This document shows positions 15,383-46,858 of a stretch of DNA of 64,000 nucleotides, one piece after another. The stretch comes from Clostridia bacterium (lineage in GTDB: Bacteria > Bacillota > Clostridia > Oscillospirales > CAG-382), in the NCBI GenBank assembly GCA_017399965.1, contig JAFQAP010000018.1, positions 11,546-75,545 on the forward strand, read 5' to 3'. The position numbers and the translations under genes are program-made. The notes beneath the pieces are model-generated. The model ran no database searches and had not been told where the DNA came from. It was given only the letters and a program-made list of their open reading frames with translations. The number at the start of each line of letters is the position of its first letter. Within the stretch, counting starts at the first letter, position 1.

Positions 15383-15817
15383 ATGATAGAACAAGATACC
15401 ATAAAGCTGCTTCGTGAATGTGATGCGGGAGTAAAAATGGGTGTAAGCTCCATCGAAGGGGTTTTGGATTACGTTAAGGACGATACTTTGTGGAAATATT
15501 TATCCGATTGCAAGGAAGAGCACGACGAGCTTGACGAGGAGCTGCAACAGCTTTTGGATAAATACGATGACGAGGGTAAAAACCCTTCCCCTATTGCAAA
15601 GGGAATGTCTATGATGAAGACTGAGATAAAATTGGGCATAAAGGGAAATGACAAAACTATTGCAGACCTTATAACCGATGGGTGCAATATGGGGGTTAAA
15701 TCCCTTAACAGATATCTTAACCAATACAAAGCGGCGGACGAGGTTTCCAAGGATATTACAAAACGCCTTATAAACCTTGAAGAAAAGCTGGCTGTGGATA
15801 TACGGTCGTATCTTTAA
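15383..15817 (+). CDS. hypothetical all-helical protein (144 aa)
   Basis: Clean ORF with heptad-like acidic helices. Function not recognised. Confidence 0.55.
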   Translation: MIEQDTIKLLRECDAGVKMGVSSIEGVLDYVKDDTLWKYLSDCKEEHDELDEELQQLLDKYDDEGKNPSPIAKGMSMMKTEIKLGIKGNDKTIADLITDGCNMGVKSLNRYLNQYKAADEVSKDITKRLINLEEKLAVDIRSYL

Positions 15818-15939
15818 AAAGGGATGGGGGTTGTCGCAAGCGGTCGGGTGAAAAAAGTGCCCGACCGCTTAAAGACAAGGAGAAACTTATGATATGGACG
15901 TAAACTTTTTTGAAATTTTTATATTGAAAGGTTGTTTAT

Positions 15940-16623
15940 TTATAACAACTGTCCTTCCGCTTCACCTGCATCGGGGTATACGTAACCGGTAACGAGCTCG
16001 GGCATATTGGGCTTTATATCGGTATGGGATGCACAGAAATCGAGTATTGCCCGGTATGCAGTCGTATTTTTTCGCCGTGTGAAAAAGCCGGAAACATGAG
16101 CGGTCTTAAAGGCGCAATGCCACCACATACTCACACCGCGCAGACGTTTTCTGCCGTGCTTTTTGTTTTCAAGCTTTTTATCGGATACATAAAATATATA
16201 TTCGTGGCCGCGATCGGGGTAATACATATCACTAAATCTATAATCCAAGGTCTTGCGGAAATAGGAAAAGCCGTAGTCCTTAAGATCCGCCCAGAGAATG
16301 TGCTTTTCCCCGAAGGGAGAAAGACGGTGTATTCCCTGCTCGTCAAAAACGTATGTAAACAACACTTCACGGATGTTGTATACAAGGTAAAGGGCCATCA
16401 TGGCAAACACACAAATTAACAAAAACATAACGATGCCCAAACCCATATTGACCAAAAGCTCAAACCGTTGGTCTGCGGGAGTCAGAACACCCGAACCGAT
16501 ACAATATGCCCACAGTATTACCATGCCCAAGGAAAAGAGCGTCATCATGCCGTAAATTATTACAGAGGGTATACCTACTTTTCTTCCGCTGATTGTAATT
16601 TTGCTGTCTGTTACTTCTAACAT
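15940..16623 (-). CDS. membrane protein, paralog of 16635-17333
   Basis: N-terminal TM hairpin. Shared blocks 'SPFGEKHILWADLKDYGFSY' and 'YIFYVSDKK'. Confidence 0.6.
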   Translation of the reverse strand: MLEVTDSKITISGRKVGIPSVIIYGMMTLFSLGMVILWAYCIGSGVLTPADQRFELLVNMGLGIVMFLLICVFAMMALYLVYNIREVLFTYVFDEQGIHRLSPFGEKHILWADLKDYGFSYFRKTLDYRFSDMYYPDRGHEYIFYVSDKKLENKKHGRKRLRGVSMWWHCAFKTAHVSGFFTRRKNTTAYRAILDFCASHTDIKPNMPELVTGYVYPDAGEAEGQLL

Positions 16624-16634
16624 ATATGCCTCCG

Positions 16635-17333
16635 CTATAAATTTTTGGGGCGGAATTTTTCTTTTAATTTGTCCGAGGGGCTTTCAAGCACAGGATCGAG
16701 AAGTCCCGTGGCGTTGGATGCGATAAAGGGCTGAACGTCCGTATGCTCTGCGCAAAAGGCGAGCGTCTGGCGCACGTGTTCACCTTGCTCGCGGGCTTCA
16801 AAATAGCCCGTATGCTTTTGATATCCCAGATTGAATGAAAGTTTGAAAAACACACCGGAAAGATCTTTTTTGCTGTAATTCTTTTGGGGACACACTTTGT
16901 CCGAAACGTAAAAGGAATAGGATTTGCCTATATCAATGAAAAAATGGCTTGAACGGCGGGTATACTCGAAGGAAATTCCGTAATCCTTAACGTCTTCCCA
17001 AGCAATAAACCTTGTGCCGAAGGGAGAAACGCGGCTTACTCCAAGCTGATCGAAAACGTATACGCACAGTGCGATTTTGGCACAGCAGAAGGCGCTGTAG
17101 GCTGACAAAAAGCAAGCAACAGTAAAAATTAATGCGGTGACAATAAAGAACGCGTATGCAAGCTTAACAGCGATAGGCGATGCGTGCTCCGAGGGTTCAT
17201 AGGTGAAGATGGTACGTATTAAATGATATGCGCCCCAAGCAGAAAGCAATGAGAATACGGAGAATATAAGCGTTACCGCTACTCCGGGTGCACGTTCATC
17301 TATTTTTATTTGTTTATCGGTTATATCGTACAT
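16635..17333 (-). CDS. membrane protein, paralog of 15940-16623
   Basis: Shared blocks 'SPFGTRFIAWEDVKDYGISF' and 'YSFYVSDKV'. An 11-nt gap to the next gene. Confidence 0.6.
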   Translation of the reverse strand: MYDITDKQIKIDERAPGVAVTLIFSVFSLLSAWGAYHLIRTIFTYEPSEHASPIAVKLAYAFFIVTALIFTVACFLSAYSAFCCAKIALCVYVFDQLGVSRVSPFGTRFIAWEDVKDYGISFEYTRRSSHFFIDIGKSYSFYVSDKVCPQKNYSKKDLSGVFFKLSFNLGYQKHTGYFEAREQGEHVRQTLAFCAEHTDVQPFIASNATGLLDPVLESPSDKLKEKFRPKNL

Positions 17334-17355
17334 TTTAAAACCGCCTGAAAGTTAA

Positions 17356-17721
17356 TTAGATAAAAGGATAAATGTAGGTGAAAAGCTGAGAAACCTCTTC
17401 GGGTGCATAAACTAAAGGGATGATAAAATAATATGCAAATGCAAGGGTATACATAATTCCCGAAAGAACGAGATTGATTATTGCGAGTATCTTGGCAGCG
17501 GTTATCATTTTGGACTTGACGCCTTCGTTTTCGCGGTGGAAATTGCTTACCTTCTGAAGTGCGTAAATAGCGATAACAACACCGAGCCAACCGAAAAAGA
17601 AATAGGAAACGATCGCGGTTATAAGGGTCTGGTTGGGTAATGCGGTTTTTACCTTATATTCCTTCACCGGCTCCGCAGGGCGAACATCATCTTCGTTATA
17701 TTGATATTTATAATTAGCCAC
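17356..17721 (-). CDS. CD225/dispanin (IFITM-like) two-TM small membrane protein, copy A (GTG start)
   Basis: 'GWLGVVIAIYALQKV...EG...TAAKILAIINLVLSGI' aligns without gaps to the IFITM 'LGxxxAxY..K...G...AKxLxIxxLxLxGI' pattern. GTG start with an AAGGA RBS. Paralog of copy B. Confidence 0.6.
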   Translation of the reverse strand: MANYKYQYNEDDVRPAEPVKEYKVKTALPNQTLITAIVSYFFFGWLGVVIAIYALQKVSNFHRENEGVKSKMITAAKILAIINLVLSGIMYTLAFAYYFIIPLVYAPEEVSQLFTYIYPFI

Positions 17722-17819
17722 GGTCTTTTTTCCTTTCGTAATTGTCCGCCGAGGGACCGCCGCGTTTGGACGGCACCTTCGGGAACGGAGTATATACAGT
17801 AGTTTGGCGTCACTGTCAA
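17722..17819 (-). promoter_or_regulatory. promoter (TTGACA-17-TATATA) plus conserved leader block of copy A
   Basis: -35 at 17814-17819 and -10 at 17791-17796 (minus strand). Block 17745-17814 is 67/70 identical to 18287-18356. Confidence 0.6.
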
Positions 17820-17877
17820 GGGGAAGTACGGATTTCATCATACCCCGGATAAAGTTTGCGGTTGCGGTCTTGCCGCC
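17815..17877 (-). pseudogene. 63-bp relic of the flotillin 3' coding region (duplication scar)
   Basis: About 90% identical to 18496-18564, which lies inside the flotillin gene (codons for '...ANFISGMMKSVPPLD'). Confidence 0.8.
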
Positions 17878-17887
17878 TGAAAGTTAA

Positions 17888-18262
17888 TCAGATAAAAGGA
17901 TAAATATATGTATAAAGCAGTGAAGCCGATTCGGGTGCCTGAGTAGCTAAGATAATGAGCGCGACGATGAAATACACAGCCGAAGAAGCCACCCCTACGC
18001 CCGTCATAACAAGACATATAATAGCAAAAACTCTTCCGACCTTCACCTTGGTACAGGTTTCGCCTTCATGCTCGGTGAGATAGATCTTCTCTTTTTGAAG
18101 GGTCCACAAAGCAAGAGCAAAGCCTATCAAGCCGTAGAAAATAAGAGAAAGTATACCCATTATCAACACGTTATTGGGATGCACGGTGTAATATTTGTAC
18201 TCCTCCACCTCTTTAGGCGGGGGCGCGGGTTCTTCGTTGTATGAGTATTTATAGTTTGCCAT
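17888..18262 (-). CDS. CD225/dispanin (IFITM-like) two-TM small membrane protein, copy B
   Basis: 'MANYKYSYNEE...GLIGFALALWTLQKE...YIYPFI'. ATG follows AAGGAG. About 35-40% identical to copy A. Confidence 0.6.
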   Translation of the reverse strand: MANYKYSYNEEPAPPPKEVEEYKYYTVHPNNVLIMGILSLIFYGLIGFALALWTLQKEKIYLTEHEGETCTKVKVGRVFAIICLVMTGVGVASSAVYFIVALIILATQAPESASLLYTYIYPFI

Positions 18263-18356
18263 ATTAAAATCTCCTTTTTTATGGTTTCCGCCGAGGGACC
18301 GCCGCGTTTGGACGGCCCCTGCGGGAACGGAGTATATACAGTGGTTTGGCGTCACT
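18263..18356 (-). promoter_or_regulatory. conserved leader/promoter block of copy B
   Basis: 18287-18356 is nearly identical to 17745-17814. Contains TATATA/TATACT, but no good -35. Confidence 0.5.
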
Positions 18357-18402
18357 ATATATCTGTGTCATACGCGTTTACGCACGCGCGGGCGTTTTGT
18401 GA

Positions 18403-19797
18403 TTACTGTTCGGTGGCTGTAGTTTCTATGCCCGCTTCATCAAGCTTTTTGCCGAGAATGGGGGGAAGCTGCATACCTGCCATTGCGAACACCTCGTCAA
18501 GAGGAGGTACGGATTTCATCATACCGGAGATAAAGTTTGCGGTTGCGGTCTTGCCGTCGCCGCCCTGGCCGCCGTCCCAAACGGTAACCTTATCGATCTT
18601 AATACCCTTAACAGCATCAACCTGAACACGCATAAGGTCTTCCAGCTTATCTGCAATAAGGAGCTTGAGTGCGGCTTCGGGGTCGCCGCCTGCGGATTTA
18701 ACGATCTCTGCAAAACCTGCAGCCTGCTTTTTAAGTATTTCTTCAACACCGCGTGCTTCTGCTTCCATCTTTGCGTAGATAGCGTCTGCTTCACCCTTTG
18801 CTTTTCTGCGGAGTCTTTCTGCTTCTGCTTCTGCTTCCAGTTCGATCTCTTTCTTCTTTGCTTCTGCACGTACGATTATGTCTGCTTCCAAAGTAGCCTG
18901 CTCTTTTGCACGGCGTGCTTCTTCTGCTGCCTGCTGTGCCGCATAGGATTCTTCCAGAGCCTTTGCTTCCTGAATCTTTTCTGCGGTAGTAGCGATCTTC
19001 ATTGCCTCTGCCTGCTTTTCTTTAAGAGCGGCTTCGGACATAGCGATCTTCATCTTTGCTTCGTTTTCACCCTGAATAGCAATAGAATCTGCTTCGGAAA
19101 CCTTGATACGCTGTTCCATCTTTGCGTTTGCTTCACCGATAGAACCTTCTCTATCCTGCTCTGCCACGCTCTTCTTTGCATCGTTGATAGCCTTTGCAGC
19201 GGCTTCTTTACCAAGCGCTGCGATATATCCGGATTCATCGCTGATATCGGTTACGTTAACGTTTATAAGGCGGAGACCGATCTTTTTAAGTTCGGTTTCT
19301 ACGTTGGAAGATACAGCGGCAAGGAATTTATCACGGTCGGTGTTGATCTCCTCGATATCCATTGTAGCGATAACAAGACGGAGCTGACCGAATATGATAT
19401 CCTTTGAAAGTTCCTGAATTTCGGAAAGCTGGAGTCCCAGCAGACGTTCTGCGGCGTTTTGCATTACACCGGTTTCGGTAGAAATACCAACGGTAAATCT
19501 GGAAGGAACGTCGATACGGATATTCTGTCTGGAAAGTGCGTTCTTAAGGTCTACCTGAATGGAAATGGGTGTAAGGTCCAGATAGGAATAAGACTGGATC
19601 ACGGGCCATACGAACTGAGCGCCGCCGTGAATACACTTGGAGCTGCGGGTGGTGCCGTCTTTGTTTTTACCGATACGACCGTAGATGACCATGATCTTAT
19701 CGGAAGGGCATCTCTTGTATCTGGAAAAGAGCCAGAGCACAAAGGACATTAAGATGAGCACTACTGCACAAATCAAAACGATGATAATGGGGTTCAT
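18403..19797 (-). CDS. flotillin-family SPFH protein (YqiK-like)
   Basis: N-terminal TM segment, SPFH domain, and a long Ala/Glu coiled coil 'EAEAEAERLRRKAKGEADAIYAKMEAEARG'. Confidence 0.9.
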   Translation of the reverse strand: MNPIIIVLICAVVLILMSFVLWLFSRYKRCPSDKIMVIYGRIGKNKDGTTRSSKCIHGGAQFVWPVIQSYSYLDLTPISIQVDLKNALSRQNIRIDVPSRFTVGISTETGVMQNAAERLLGLQLSEIQELSKDIIFGQLRLVIATMDIEEINTDRDKFLAAVSSNVETELKKIGLRLINVNVTDISDESGYIAALGKEAAAKAINDAKKSVAEQDREGSIGEANAKMEQRIKVSEADSIAIQGENEAKMKIAMSEAALKEKQAEAMKIATTAEKIQEAKALEESYAAQQAAEEARRAKEQATLEADIIVRAEAKKKEIELEAEAEAERLRRKAKGEADAIYAKMEAEARGVEEILKKQAAGFAEIVKSAGGDPEAALKLLIADKLEDLMRVQVDAVKGIKIDKVTVWDGGQGGDGKTATANFISGMMKSVPPLDEVFAMAGMQLPPILGKKLDEAGIETTATEQ

Positions 19798-19836: not shown

Positions 19837-20469
19837 TTACTTTTTTCTTACAACAAGAGTAGTTTCGCCGCTTACACGGACGACTACCACTTCACTGCCT
19901 GTGGGAATGGGGTCGGGTTCATCGGTAACCGCGTCCCGTTCTACGTAGGAGCCCTGAAGCAGTATGTGTACCTTACCCTCGCCCATTCTTGCGGGAGGGA
20001 TGGTAAGATGTACTTTGCCTGCGGTGCCGACGGCGTTTCGGATATCTATTGTTCCGTCGCTTTTCAGGTTCATTATCGCTTTGAAAATAAAAGCGAGCAA
20101 AACCATCATTGCAAAGCCGCAAACAGAGGATATGGGAATGTTTATCCACAATGCCACGTTCATAGACTCCAGCAAAGCGCCGACCCATCCGAATATTACC
20201 AGAAAGGCGATAACGCCTCTTACGGTGAATATGCGTAGTCCGTCAAACCCGTTGGGGTCCAAGTCCTCGTCAAATCCGCCGTCTTCGCTTCCGTCAACGT
20301 CCACATCATCGGATACGTCTGTGTCCGCTCCGTCTGCATCCGCATCCTCGCCCATACCGATAAACATCAAAATCGTCTGAACAAGAAGGACCAGAGTAGA
20401 AGGAACTGCAATACAATAGAATATTTGCGCCACCAAGCTAAGAGAATTCCACCATTCAATAATAGCCAT
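19837..20469 (-). CDS. NfeD-family membrane protein (YqiJ-like)
   Basis: TM segments, an Asp-rich loop 'DADADGADTDVSDDVDVDGSEDGG', and a C-terminal OB-like 'GKVHILLQGSYVERDAV...VVVVRVSGETTLVVRK'. Confidence 0.8.
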   Translation of the reverse strand: MAIIEWWNSLSLVAQIFYCIAVPSTLVLLVQTILMFIGMGEDADADGADTDVSDDVDVDGSEDGGFDEDLDPNGFDGLRIFTVRGVIAFLVIFGWVGALLESMNVALWINIPISSVCGFAMMVLLAFIFKAIMNLKSDGTIDIRNAVGTAGKVHLTIPPARMGEGKVHILLQGSYVERDAVTDEPDPIPTGSEVVVVRVSGETTLVVRKK

Positions 20470-20506: not shown

Positions 20507-21061
20507 TTATTTCAAAGTAGAGAGCAGCTCAATGGATTTGTCCCGCATGCGGGAAGCACCGTGAGCATAAAACATTACTACCAAAAGCTTACACAGCTTT
20601 TTCTTTTCGCCGGGCGTGCGCTCCGTAAATCCTTCGGAAGCGGCTTCCGCTGCTTTAAAGACTGTGCCTTCATCGATAATGTCCAGCCGTGTATCCGATA
20701 ACATATCCACGTATCTGTGATACAGCTCGTTATCGCTGATAAGATCGTCATCCGGATTATCCAATTCACCGCCGATGATCTGTATAAGCCCGCAGATACG
20801 CTCGATCTGCAAAGAATCTCGGAGCATATTTATAATAAGTATACGGGCAAACTGCTGGCGTGAATATAATCTTTTTACAGGTGAGGTGAGAAAACCTCTT
20901 TTCACCCAATTTTGTATAACGTAGGGCTCCAAGCCTGTCATAACGGAGACCTGGGAAAGAGTTATTCCCCCTGCCGCAAAAACACCGTCAAACAAAGCTT
21001 TGGAGCTCCCTTTGGTAAGGGCGCTTACCTCTATGGTAGTTCCCGGGAATGTTCCTGCCAT
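20507..21061 (-). CDS. DUF1836-like protein with a MerR-like HTH
   Basis: 'TLSQVSVMTGLEPYVIQNWVKRGFLTSPVKRLYSRQQFARILIINMLRD'. GGAGG RBS. Confidence 0.6.
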   Translation of the reverse strand: MAGTFPGTTIEVSALTKGSSKALFDGVFAAGGITLSQVSVMTGLEPYVIQNWVKRGFLTSPVKRLYSRQQFARILIINMLRDSLQIERICGLIQIIGGELDNPDDDLISDNELYHRYVDMLSDTRLDIIDEGTVFKAAEAASEGFTERTPGEKKKLCKLLVVMFYAHGASRMRDKSIELLSTLK

Positions 21062-21099: not shown

Positions 21100-21128
21100 A
21101 TTATATCATATGGTCACGTGATTGTCAA
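21100..21128 (-). promoter_or_regulatory. consensus sigma-A promoter of the DUF1836-NfeD-flotillin operon
   Basis: Minus strand: TTGACA (21128-21123), 17 nt, TATAAT (21105-21100). The spacer contains the palindrome TCACGTGA. Confidence 0.75.
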
Positions 21129-21199: not shown

Positions 21200-21232
21200 A
21201 CAAAAAAGGAGCCTGTTTGCACAGACTCCTTT
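21200..21232 (-). terminator. rho-independent terminator of the LOG-family gene
   Basis: Minus strand: AGGAGTCTG...CAGGCTCCT hairpin followed by TTTTTTGT. Confidence 0.7.
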
Positions 21233-44364: not shown

Positions 44365-44648
44365 ATTTATTAAACCGTTGATGCGGAGATAAAAACAAAA
44401 CACGCCTTTACAGAGAGTCTGCGCAGCTGAGATGCAGGCAAGAAACAGTTTGTTAAATGGACCGCGGAGGGCGCAGTCAAATGTGCATATACTGTACAGA
44501 GTATTCTGCGACGTGGGGACATGCGTAAGTTGTCGGGAATATGCAGTATTCCGAAAAGAGCACGGCTTTGCCGTGAATCAAGGTGGCACCGCGAATAAAA
44601 ACAATTATTCGTCCTTGGCAGATGGTATATTTCTGCCAAGGATTTTTA
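44365..44648 (+). promoter_or_regulatory. T-box riboswitch leader, Trp specifier (UGG)
   Basis: AGAGAG bay. Specifier 'AAAUGGA' (UGG at 44458-44460). T-box 'AATCAAGGTGGCACCGCG' (44576-44593). Terminator CCTTGGCAGA/TCTGCCAAGG (44613-44641) plus a T-run. Confidence 0.88.
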
Positions 44649-44669
44649 TTTATAAAGGAGAAAAGAAAA

Positions 44670-45887
44670 ATGAAATTCAACGGAATCGACTTCGATACAT
44701 ATTTTAAAAACTACCCCGATGAAAAGGGATATTTCGGTAAATACGGCGGGTCCTACATATCCCCCGAATTGCAAAAGGCGATGGACGAAACCACCGAAGC
44801 ATATTTTACCATTTGTAAATCCAGCAAGTTTATAAGCGAATTGCGCCGTATACGCAAGGAATTTCAGGGCAGACCTACCCCTATTTCCCATCTTGAGCGT
44901 CTTTCGGCATCCTTGGGCAACGTGCAGCTTTACGTAAAGAGAGAAGACCTTAACCACACCGGCGCCCACAAGCTTAACCACTGTATGGGTGAAGCACTCC
45001 TTGCCAAATATATGGGAAAAAAGAAGGTTATTGCAGAAACGGGTGCAGGACAGCACGGTGTTGCAATTGCCACCGCAGCCGCTTTTTTCGGTTTGGAATG
45101 TGACGTTTATATGGGCACCGTGGATATTAAAAAGCAGGCGCCCAACGTAGCAAGAATGAAGATACTGGGTGCAAACGTGGTGGAAGTTACCCACGGACTT
45201 GCAACCTTAAAAGAAGCGGCTGATGCGGCTTTTGACGCGTACGCAAGAGAATATAAAGATGCCATTTACTGCATCGGTTCCGTTGTCGGTCCCCATCCCT
45301 TCCCTATGATGGTAAGAGATTTCCAGAGCATTGTGGGTATTGAAGCGAGAGAGCAGTTTGTTGAAATGACAGGCGAACTGCCCGACGCAGTAGTTGCCTG
45401 CGTAGGCGGCGGTTCCAACTCCATGGGTATGTTCTCCGGCTTCCTTAATTACCCCGTAGATATTTACGGTGTTGAGCCTTTGGGCAGAGGCACCGCTTTG
45501 GGTGACCATGCCGCAAGTCTGAAATACGGCACGGAAGGCGTTATGCACGGCTTCAACAGCATTATGCTTAAGGATGAAAACGGCGATCCTGCTCCCGTTT
45601 ACTCTGTTGCAAGCGGACTTGACTACCCCTCCTCCGGACCCGAGCACGCATTCCTCCACGATCTGGGCAGAGTAAAATATGATGTGGTTTCCGATGATGA
45701 GACCATAGATGCCTTCTTCACCCTCTCCAGATTGGAGGGTATCATCCCCGCTATTGAAAGCTCCCACGCAGTTGCATACGGTATTAAGCTTGCAAAGACT
45801 ATGGGCAAGGGCTCCGTACTCATCTGTCTCTCCGGCAGAGGCGATAAGGACATGGACTTTATCATAGAAAAATACGGTATAAGATAG
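44670..45887 (+). CDS. trpB: tryptophan synthase beta chain (orphan, no trpA nearby)
   Basis: '[15 protein letters not shown]', PLP-lysine motif 'HTGAHKLNH', '[10 protein letters not shown]'. AAGGAG RBS. Confidence 0.88.
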
Positions 45888-45907: not shown

Positions 45908-46858
45908 ATGAAGAGAATTATATCTGTTGCTCTTGTGCTTATATGCGTTTTGCTTGCTTCCTGCAGTCCCGATCACGAAAGCACTTCCCACGGCGAAGAA
46001 GTAAACTACAGCGAGGTACTGGAAACGGCGCAAAAGTATATCGATGAGGGCAAATACGAGGATGCGTACAAAGCTTTATACAGCATTTGCGATTATCCCG
46101 AAGCAAAGGAAATGCTTGCCGATTTCAAGGTGCTTCCCCTTAAGGCAAAAGGTAACGGTTCTGCTCAAACAAAGCCGAGATCTTACGTTTGCGAATATTC
46201 CTATGACGAAAACGGTGTGCTTTTAAGCAAAGAGGAAAAGCTTCCCAATGACGTTACAAAAACCTACACTTATACCTATGACGAAATGGGAAGATTGGTA
46301 AAAGAGGCTGTTAAAAAAGTTTCTCCTTACACCGGCTCCTATGAATCCTCCAACAAAACCAAGACTGAAAACAGCAGTATTACCTACACCTATAACGAGC
46401 ATGGGGATATCGTAAAAGAGTATATCGATGAAGCGATCGGATGGCCGTATTATCTTGAGTACGAATTTGAATACGATGAAAACGGCAGAAAAACATCTAT
46501 GTACGATCTTACCCAAGACGAAACTACTTATTTTACGTATAACGAGCAAGGTCAGCTTACCGAAAAGAAAAACGAATATGGCACCGTTTTTGTTTTCGAA
46601 TACGATCAAAACGGAAACCTTATAAAAGAGACTATGGGCTCGAACTGGGTAATTGAATACACCTATGATGAACGAAATAATTTGGTTAAAATGCTGGAGA
46701 ATTACAATATAGGCGAATATAACGAGATAAAATATGTCCACCGTTACACGTATGACGAATACGGTGTGCTTACCGCTTATTCTTTAACCGATATTAATCG
46801 TGCGGAATACGTAGAAAAGTATTCGGAATTTAAATATTTTTATTGCCCCAAGGAATAA
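45908..46858 (+). CDS. YD/RHS-repeat lipoprotein (short, no toxin tip)
   Basis: Lipobox 'VLLASC'. Repeats 'YTYDEMGRLVKE', 'FEYDENGRKT', 'FEYDQNGNLIKE', 'YTYDERNNLVK', 'YTYDEYGVLT'. Confidence 0.7.
   Translation: MKRIISVALVLICVLLASCSPDHESTSHGEEVNYSEVLETAQKYIDEGKYEDAYKALYSICDYPEAKEMLADFKVLPLKAKGNGSAQTKPRSYVCEYSYDENGVLLSKEEKLPNDVTKTYTYTYDEMGRLVKEAVKKVSPYTGSYESSNKTKTENSSITYTYNEHGDIVKEYIDEAIGWPYYLEYEFEYDENGRKTSMYDLTQDETTYFTYNEQGQLTEKKNEYGTVFVFEYDQNGNLIKETMGSNWVIEYTYDERNNLVKMLENYNIGEYNEIKYVHRYTYDEYGVLTAYSLTDINRAEYVEKYSEFKYFYCPKE

Follow-up and report, generated by a model that had tools for sequence, protein, structure and literature searches.

Stem-loops at the 5′ terminus act as stabilisers of mRNA in Gram-positive bacteria, e.g., in the aprE leader of Bacillus subtilis and in ermC, and structure-guided cleavage by RNase Y takes place in saePQRS of Staphylococcus aureus and in the yitJ leader of B. 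subtilis. To our knowledge, elements of these types are not conserved motifs with fixed loops, and none of them is tied to a flotillin operon. The mini-ykkC (guanidine-II) riboswitch consists of two short hairpins, each with an ACGR tetraloop, and promoters of the MerR type have a 19–20-bp spacer between the −35 and −10 boxes with a dyad-symmetric site inside it. Selective RNA processing and stabilisation (SRPS) has been described for the cip-cel operon of Ruminiclostridium cellulolyticum, where intergenic stem-loops lacking a U-tail serve both as cleavage signals and as protectors of the transcript ends (PMC4423207; PMC10311766). In IR4 of this operon a small upstream stem-loop, SL1, and a large one, SL2, with a base of A-T pairs, put the cut upstream, and the downstream transcript receives a 5′ hairpin; the sequences of the loop and of the upper stem are dispensable (PMC10311766).

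The window, i.e., the whole stretch of 64,000 nucleotides of Clostridia DNA analysed here, carries a flotillin (SPFH/NfeD) operon on its minus strand. It is headed by a gene coding for an HTH protein of the MerR family (MerR/DUF1836; 20507-21061), followed by an nfeD-like gene (19837-20469), the flotillin/SPFH gene (18403-19797; Pfam Band_7, 2.9e-26), two genes for small 2-TM proteins, and two bPH-like paralogues (16635-17333 and 15940-16623). Of the two small genes, gene B (17888-18262, 124 aa) lies immediately downstream of the flotillin gene, and gene A (17356-17721, 121 aa), a mosaic, has a GTG start codon. In some assemblies gene A is called as 17356-17841 with a 161-aa product, because the reading frame stays open through the leader up to an in-frame ATGATG in a flotillin pseudo-fragment; a start at GTG 17721, which follows a GAAAGGA Shine-Dalgarno (SD) sequence, is likelier. 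The bPH-like genes code for membrane proteins of ~230 aa, 33% identical to each other, with a weak hint of a bacterial PH domain, and their number varies from one to three among related loci. The PADLOC defence models gave no match to any of seven operon proteins, MerR/DUF1836 to the second bPH-like protein. The only strong consensus promoter at the locus is a sigma-70 promoter upstream of the MerR/DUF1836 gene (21100-21128, minus strand; TTGACA-17-TATAAT with TG, 12/12 match). Together with the canonical terminator preceding it on the same strand (21205-21232), it probably defines the start of the flotillin operon.

The order merR/DUF1836, nfeD, flotillin, small 2-TM gene(s), bPH-like genes is common to the loci recovered from genomes and assemblies, and the flotillin is identical in 95 to 99.6% of its amino acids across orthologous loci. 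Divergence is much greater in the small gene and in the first bPH-like gene. The tandem arrangement found in the window is 100% identical in three assemblies and therefore is not an assembly artefact. The small proteins form a family of 31 clusters at 90% identity, with only three to four representatives (50% identity level) at E<1e-10 among 1.84 billion proteins, and all of them belong to uncultured Clostridia/Oscillospiraceae living in the guts of ruminants and other hosts. The first-pass annotation had called these genes CD225-like. Neither has a Pfam match at E<=0.01 other than noise, so that membership of PF04505 (CD225/dispanin) is not supported, and what is left is a sub-threshold match to NCBIfam CCC_membrane (22.8 bits against a cut-off of 65). 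Distant relatives of the small proteins match DUF4190/MpPF26, likewise below threshold.

The feature that singles out this locus is a 70-nt direct repeat, 17745-17814 versus 18287-18356, with 67 of 70 positions identical (96%) and a spacing of 542; the repeat finder reports it just as the first-pass annotation had described it. A search of the 64-kb window for its 29-nt core gives exactly two occurrences, versus 0 expected from shuffles. The genes downstream of the two copies have indeed diverged, although their products are 45% identical, slightly more than the 35–40% quoted earlier; the synonymous codon differences quoted for them are present in the sequence, and the stretch between the block and the ribosome-binding site is unrelated in the two units when these are aligned. 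The similarity does not end at 17814, as had been supposed. Block copy A is directly abutted by a flotillin pseudo-fragment (17815-17875, minus strand), a 61-nt copy of 18496-18556 from the 3′ region of the flotillin gene, 92% identical to it. Moreover, the 3′ end of gene A with 17 nt downstream (17341-17406, minus strand) is repeated at 17873-17938 in gene B (66 nt, 85%), the repeat spanning the last ~12 codons of each small gene plus 17 nt. In the unit alignment the region upstream of copy A equals that of copy B minus 139 nt (18357-18495), with a deletion junction reading ...CAGGCGG|CAAGACCGC..., and thus the whole unit, from the flotillin interior to 17 nt past the small gene, was tandemly duplicated. 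The duplicated segment was of ~684 bp (the flotillin 3′ tail, the gap, the gene, and 17 nt), and 139 nt were later lost from the downstream unit. The sharp boundaries of the block, which had been taken for limits of selection, have other origins: the 5′ one is a junction left by duplication and deletion, and the 3′ one a breakpoint of recombination.

This was not a simple recent tandem duplication, with flanks 85–96% identical but a coding core only ~50% identical. A sliding comparison divides unit A into three parts. The first (17830-17711), comprising the element discussed below, the ribosome-binding site, and the first codons, has its best match, at 95–100%, in L030, a locus from the same species. 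The coding core (17710-17431) is 75–92% identical to A-type genes of other genomes and only 45–60% identical to gene B and to L030, while the 3′ end (17430-17330) again matches L030 best (92%). The unit is a mosaic, since its core matches the A-type genes of other genomes, and gene A, judged by these comparisons, consists of a foreign-type core inside resident-type flanks: it has the B-type C-terminus APEEVSQLFTYIYPFI, whereas A-type genes elsewhere end differently. L030 is 98.3% identical to the window over 21700-18138 and 97.8% over 16642-15816, yet between these flanks it has one small gene and three bPH genes versus two and two in the window (15816-18138 versus L030 3628-6152); the region between flotillin and the final bPH gene is thus an island that varies among strains.

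Another lineage (L042/L043; L043 1-1040) has a tandem pair of its own, independent of the first, with products of 139 and 128 aa that are 44% identical. The element, the ribosome-binding site, and the first ~55 nt of the coding sequence are identical between its copies at 118 of 121 positions, after which identity drops abruptly. Upstream of the second copy stand the final ~18 nt of flotillin and hairpin H1, so that its junction differs from that in the window. A leader may thus remain identical next to a divergent gene because the flanks were duplicated and recombined and the gene bodies swapped, and the earlier suggestion of leader-restricted gene conversion or recombination gains support from both the mosaic gene A and this pair as the reason for near-identical copies with differing coding bodies. 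The 96% identity between the copies is a matter of tandem duplication and recombination of the flanks, i.e., of shared ancestry or recombination. Tandem duplicates with partial gene conversion at hypervariable loci similarly have homogenised 5′ and 3′ flanks and divergent cores, breakpoints that vary by lineage, and a gene number that varies among close strains. Two differences set the present locus apart from them: the homogenised 5′ flank coincides with an RNA element conserved throughout the clade, and no dedicated recombinase or retroelement is seen among the annotated operon genes. A cassette site similar to integron attC was rejected, because the two independent tandem pairs have their junctions at different flotillin positions and the annotated operon genes include no integrase. 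So was a diversity-generating retroelement, as the paralogues differ by indels and at bases of every type and the locus shows no reverse transcriptase.

The block is the 3′ two-thirds of an element of ~80 nt, read on the minus strand, and runs from the last 4 nt of the 5′ arm of a hairpin designated H2 to the end of a second one, H3. The element reaches ~10 nt past the block into H2, and the orthologues add a third hairpin, H1. Copy B of the element (18286-18366, containing 18287-18356) lies upstream of gene B and comprises H2, a linker, and H3; it scores 80.2 bits with the covariance model described below (E 2.6e-18). Copy A (17744-17824, containing 17745-17814), upstream of gene A, has a truncated H2 followed by the linker and H3, and scores 64.2 bits (E 3.1e-14). 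H1, present in copy B only (18372-18389, minus strand), is a small GC hairpin situated right after the flotillin stop codon and lacking a sense-strand U-tract. In the reverse direction (18373-18390, plus strand) it resembles an intrinsic terminator, a hairpin followed by GGCGTTTTGT, and could stop antisense transcription into the flotillin gene.

H2 of copy B (18334-18362, minus strand) is formed by the arms AUAUAUAGUG and CACUGUAUAU with the loop ACGCCAAAC, and appears in both the MFE and the centroid folds. Its consensus among orthologues is AUAUAU-(AGUG / GCGGC / AUGGC / GUGGU), the loop (A)ACGCCAAAC, and (CACU / GCCGU / GCCAU)-GUAUAU, with a base of alternating A-U, comprising six to seven A-U/G-U pairs, in all of them. 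In copy A the outer AUAUAU 5′ arm is replaced by the flotillin fragment, leaving in the fold a truncated H2 of 6 bp (17796-17816, minus strand; ACAGUG/UACUGU). H2 and H3 are connected by an invariant single-stranded linker, (U)ACUCC(G/A). H3 is an extended GC-rich hairpin, located at 18287-18331 in copy B (loop CAAACGC at 18304-18310; −26.6 kcal/mol, z −3.1) and, according to the fold, at 17745-17789 in copy A (loop CAAACGC at 17762-17768), both on the minus strand; the two differ at two positions, one at a bulge or mismatch and one at a G-U position. Its outer stem is, e.g., CCCCGAAGG/CCUUCGGGG, its loop CAAACG(C/U), and its inner stem varies by lineage (CCGUC/GGCGG, UUGCU/AGCAG, CAAAG/CUUUG; GGAC/GUUC versus GGGC/GUCC). 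The pseudoknot-like pairing of GGGGCC with GGUCCC put forward in the first-pass annotation turns out in the folds to be a nested extension of this hairpin. About 10–20 variable nucleotides separate H3 from the SD sequence.

Every orthologue recovered has the element upstream, and in 20 further loci it occurs a single time each. A covariance model derived from the alignment of 20 distinct flotillin-to-small-gene gaps detects exactly one copy in each locus, invariably ahead of the first small gene, and two in the window. It detects nothing more in the rest of the window or in the sequence flanking the 20 loci (174 kb), so a regulon of dispersed copies was discarded. Nothing resembling the element is present in the operon's own promoter region. 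In some loci a second, shorter homologue of the small gene follows almost directly after the first (L006/L007, 4401-4690; L039, 992-1288), with no element of its own. Each orthologous gap folds alone into H1-H2-H3 (z −3.5 to −4.9), and H1, which appears in the folds of all orthologous intergenic regions, has CGCG/CGCG in the window changed to CACG/CGUG in L008/L009. RNAalifold recovers both H2 and H3, with nine pairs changed on both sides. In the model-based alignment 93.1% of cells are paired versus 38–56% with slid partners, double changes fall in eight pairs (36 cells), and the observed covariation is reached by 0 of 500 shuffles, a statistic that overstates independence because the stems of this single narrow clade have perhaps three to five variants of independent origin. 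In H2 the arms covary as AGUG/CACU, GCGGC/GCCGU, and AUGGC/GCCAU, and in one group the stem is 2 bp longer owing to matching indels in its two arms. The sense strand pairs in 93.1% of cells and the antisense strand in 80.5%, a difference due to 62 G.U cells, and this bias points to the element acting as RNA transcribed in the mRNA direction. Conservation is ~90% in the loops of H2 and H3, both containing CAAAC, and the arms of the inner stem of H3 are just 42–61% identical.

The position before every orthologue recovered and the compensatory changes in both stems, albeit in few independent lineages, are those of a structured cis-regulatory RNA, and on both counts the earlier view that the block belongs to a genuine cis element has held up. 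It is a real cis-acting RNA supported by covariation, uncatalogued until now and of narrow distribution. It is scarcely credible that the element has no function and that the identity of its copies is a mere residue of recent duplication or gene conversion. The adjoining pseudo-fragment (92%), the similar 3′ ends (85%), and the mosaic gene A speak for such a residue, but the element stands upstream of every orthologue though the flanking genes are only ~77–80% identical at the DNA level, and it has compensatory stem changes and fixed loops. This explanation is contradicted for the element and correct only for why the two copies in the window are so alike. Equal conservation of neutral flanking sequence, named in the first-pass annotation as the mark of a recent duplication, does apply between the copies, where the presumably neutral flotillin pseudo-fragment is nearly as conserved as the block, but not to the upkeep of the element throughout the clade, which is due to purifying selection.

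Of the described systems, SRPS signals of the cip-cel type come closest. Like them, the element lies between cistrons of an operon for membrane or complex partners in a host belonging to the Clostridia, and is devoid of a U-tail; as in IR4, a small upstream hairpin precedes a larger one with an A-U base, and a strong hairpin is placed so as to become the 5′ end of the downstream transcript. No terminator-like site is present on the minus strand within 17700-18420, and so none between flotillin and the small gene; nor is the element itself an intrinsic terminator or attenuator, with no hairpin followed by a U-tract and with A-rich sequence after H3. H1 and H2 behave as hairpins of the sense-strand RNA and must therefore be transcribed, which implies read-through from flotillin. 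We tentatively favour, at rather less than an even chance, the reading of this structured intercistronic element as an SRPS signal, which may overlap an internal promoter. The match of H1, the A-U-based H2, and H3 to the IR4 layout is the ground for proposing cleavage of the polycistronic transcript close to the A-U base of H2 or within the linker. The small-gene mRNA would as a result begin with H3 and be protected by it, and H1 and H2 would protect the 3′ end of the flotillin mRNA, so that the abundance of flotillin and that of the small-gene product could be uncoupled. In the stabilisers of the aprE/ermC type a stable hairpin likewise lies a few nucleotides from the 5′ end, here a predicted one, and is followed by an accessible SD, and RNase Y sites resemble the linker in being single-stranded segments just upstream of a structured element.

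Several features depart from the cip-cel model. There is no sequence relationship, the element has two large hairpins and an invariant linker, and cleavage, like co-transcription and the 5′ end in this organism, is something we infer from sequence and folds. Unlike the dispensable loop and upper stem of IR4, the loop sequences of the element are conserved, and their ~90% conservation together with the invariant linker is beyond what a pure role in processing or stability explains.

The sequence TGTATATACT, which is invariant, may just as well be a −10 box. In this case it would be an (extended) −10 of an internal promoter, with transcription starting a few nucleotides before H3, H3 forming the 5′-terminal stem-loop of a separate small-gene mRNA, and H2 conserved as promoter or operator DNA. 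We consider this possible but doubtful; it is compatible with the SRPS explanation. Of 19 distinct sequences, 18 carry TGTATATACTCC unchanged, H3 begins within ~4 nt of the predicted start site, and in copy A the deletion junction created a promoter-like site (17791-17819, minus strand) in which a perfect TTGACA (17819-17814) stands exactly 17 nt upstream of TATATA (17796-17791). This site was read from the sequence and was left unlisted by the promoter scanner, which accepts only −10 hexamers ending in T. However, there is no −35 box outside copy A, i.e., in copy B or in the orthologues, and in L038 the change of TATATAC to TATGTAC damages the −10 but retains the pair as U.G. Furthermore, the distance between the AT-rich arms shifts by 4 nt between groups through paired indels, which a hairpin tolerates and −35/−10 spacing does not, and the G.U-type asymmetry of H2 makes sense only on the sense strand. 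The paired indels in H2 and the U.G pair of L038 fit a hairpin better than a fixed −35/−10 geometry. The "−10 element with about 45 nt of transcribed leader" of the first-pass annotation therefore survives as one possibility, but the putative −10 lies within H2, and H2 has the properties of a hairpin in the sense-strand RNA, which implies that transcription arrives from upstream. Promoter readings of CCAAAC and ATATAT for ECF sigma factors (AAC...CGT) and sporulation sigma factors were also considered and dropped, as their spacing is not conserved.

The promoter-like site of copy A can be accommodated by the SRPS reading. This copy has lost H1 and the outer part of H2, and TTGACA-17-TATATA would start transcription at the foot of H3, giving an equivalent 5′ end. 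Such a replacement of processing by a junction promoter is suggestive but could be a product of chance.

The near-palindrome of H2 around the −10-like box and the MerR-family HTH protein encoded at the head of the operon could also be taken to mean that the element is a double-stranded DNA operator over a promoter, e.g., for the MerR/DUF1836 protein, in which covariation would reflect symmetric changes of half-sites. This is very unlikely. The arm-to-arm spacing varies by 4 bp, the arms, with conserved G.T/T.G positions, are not true DNA palindromes, H3 covaries too although it lies downstream of any promoter, and nothing similar occurs at the operon's own promoter. Nor is the arrangement that of a MerR-type operator: no −35 box with a 19–20-bp spacer is present, and the dyad arms include the −10-like box itself.

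A further reading concerns the conserved loops: ACGCCAAAC and CAAACGY, both with CAAAC, and the ACUCC linker would form a platform on which an RNA-binding protein, small RNA, or small molecule acts to control the small membrane protein's expression. The loops stay ~90% identical while the arms of the inner stem of H3 vary and covary, which indicates selection on the loop sequence itself; the linker is invariant, and two hairpins with related loops recall tandem-hairpin binding platforms. On the other hand, the SD is free of conserved sequestering, no terminator/antiterminator alternative is visible, no candidate binder besides the MerR/DUF1836 protein is consistently nearby, and in such a narrow clade the unpaired positions may have lacked time to vary. 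We judge a riboregulator responding to a trans-acting factor or ligand unlikely, and give an equally low probability to its extension, a new class of RNA whose strict conservation provides a homology anchor for the swapping or stacking of divergent alleles. The folds show no conserved alternative pairing that would sequester the SD or form a terminator/antiterminator pair. An anti-SD switch was rejected, as the ACUCC linker or the CCUUC arm pairs with the SD in single sequences but not consistently, and a conserved upstream ORF or leader peptide was rejected as well, since the ORFs that cross the element in several loci do so in different frames, owing to the 2-nt indels in the arms.

The riboregulator reading also lacks a relative in Rfam. 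The Rfam search proposed in the first-pass annotation returned no family matching the element: within 17300-18450, even at E<=10, there is only a chance match to osmY (14.7 bits) on the other strand. The guanidine-II (mini-ykkC) riboswitch is similar in having two tandem hairpins that precede a gene for a small membrane protein and whose loops are better conserved than their stems, and its loops as well as both loops of the element contain ACG. It was nevertheless excluded, as the element has loops of 7 nt in H3 (CAAACGY) and 9–11 nt in H2 (ACGCCAAAC) and stems of 10–16 bp, and gives no match to RF01068 at E<=10. The 140-nt gap has no blastn match in the phage and plasmid collections, and a metagenome-wide scan with the pattern CGCCAAACN{2,8}TGTATATACTCC returned 12 loci (L013-L024), all of them unrelated chance matches.

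The locus thus offers a covariation-supported RNA motif, absent from Rfam, inside a flotillin (SPFH/NfeD) operon, a type of operon whose regulation and small partners are poorly understood. It is restricted to one narrow clade of uncultured Clostridia from ruminants and other guts, which limits its reach, and any wider meaning hinges on a function that we infer. If processing and stabilisation indeed take place, the SRPS principle, documented for the cellulosome and other complex-encoding operons of Clostridia, would extend to genes of membrane microdomains, and the element would provide a small, naturally occurring part with which the gene ratios of an operon could be tuned. The locus also indicates that a conserved regulatory element can flank a gene varying strongly between near-identical strains, and the paradox of an identical leader next to a divergent gene is accounted for without exotic mechanisms.

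At the gathering threshold, the only Rfam 15 family found in the whole window is a T-box leader (RF00230; 44369-44619, plus strand), which scores 97.9 bits. It lies directly upstream of an ORF (44583-45887) with a domain of PLP-dependent enzymes (PALP), and the next ORF (45908-46858) contains RHS repeats.
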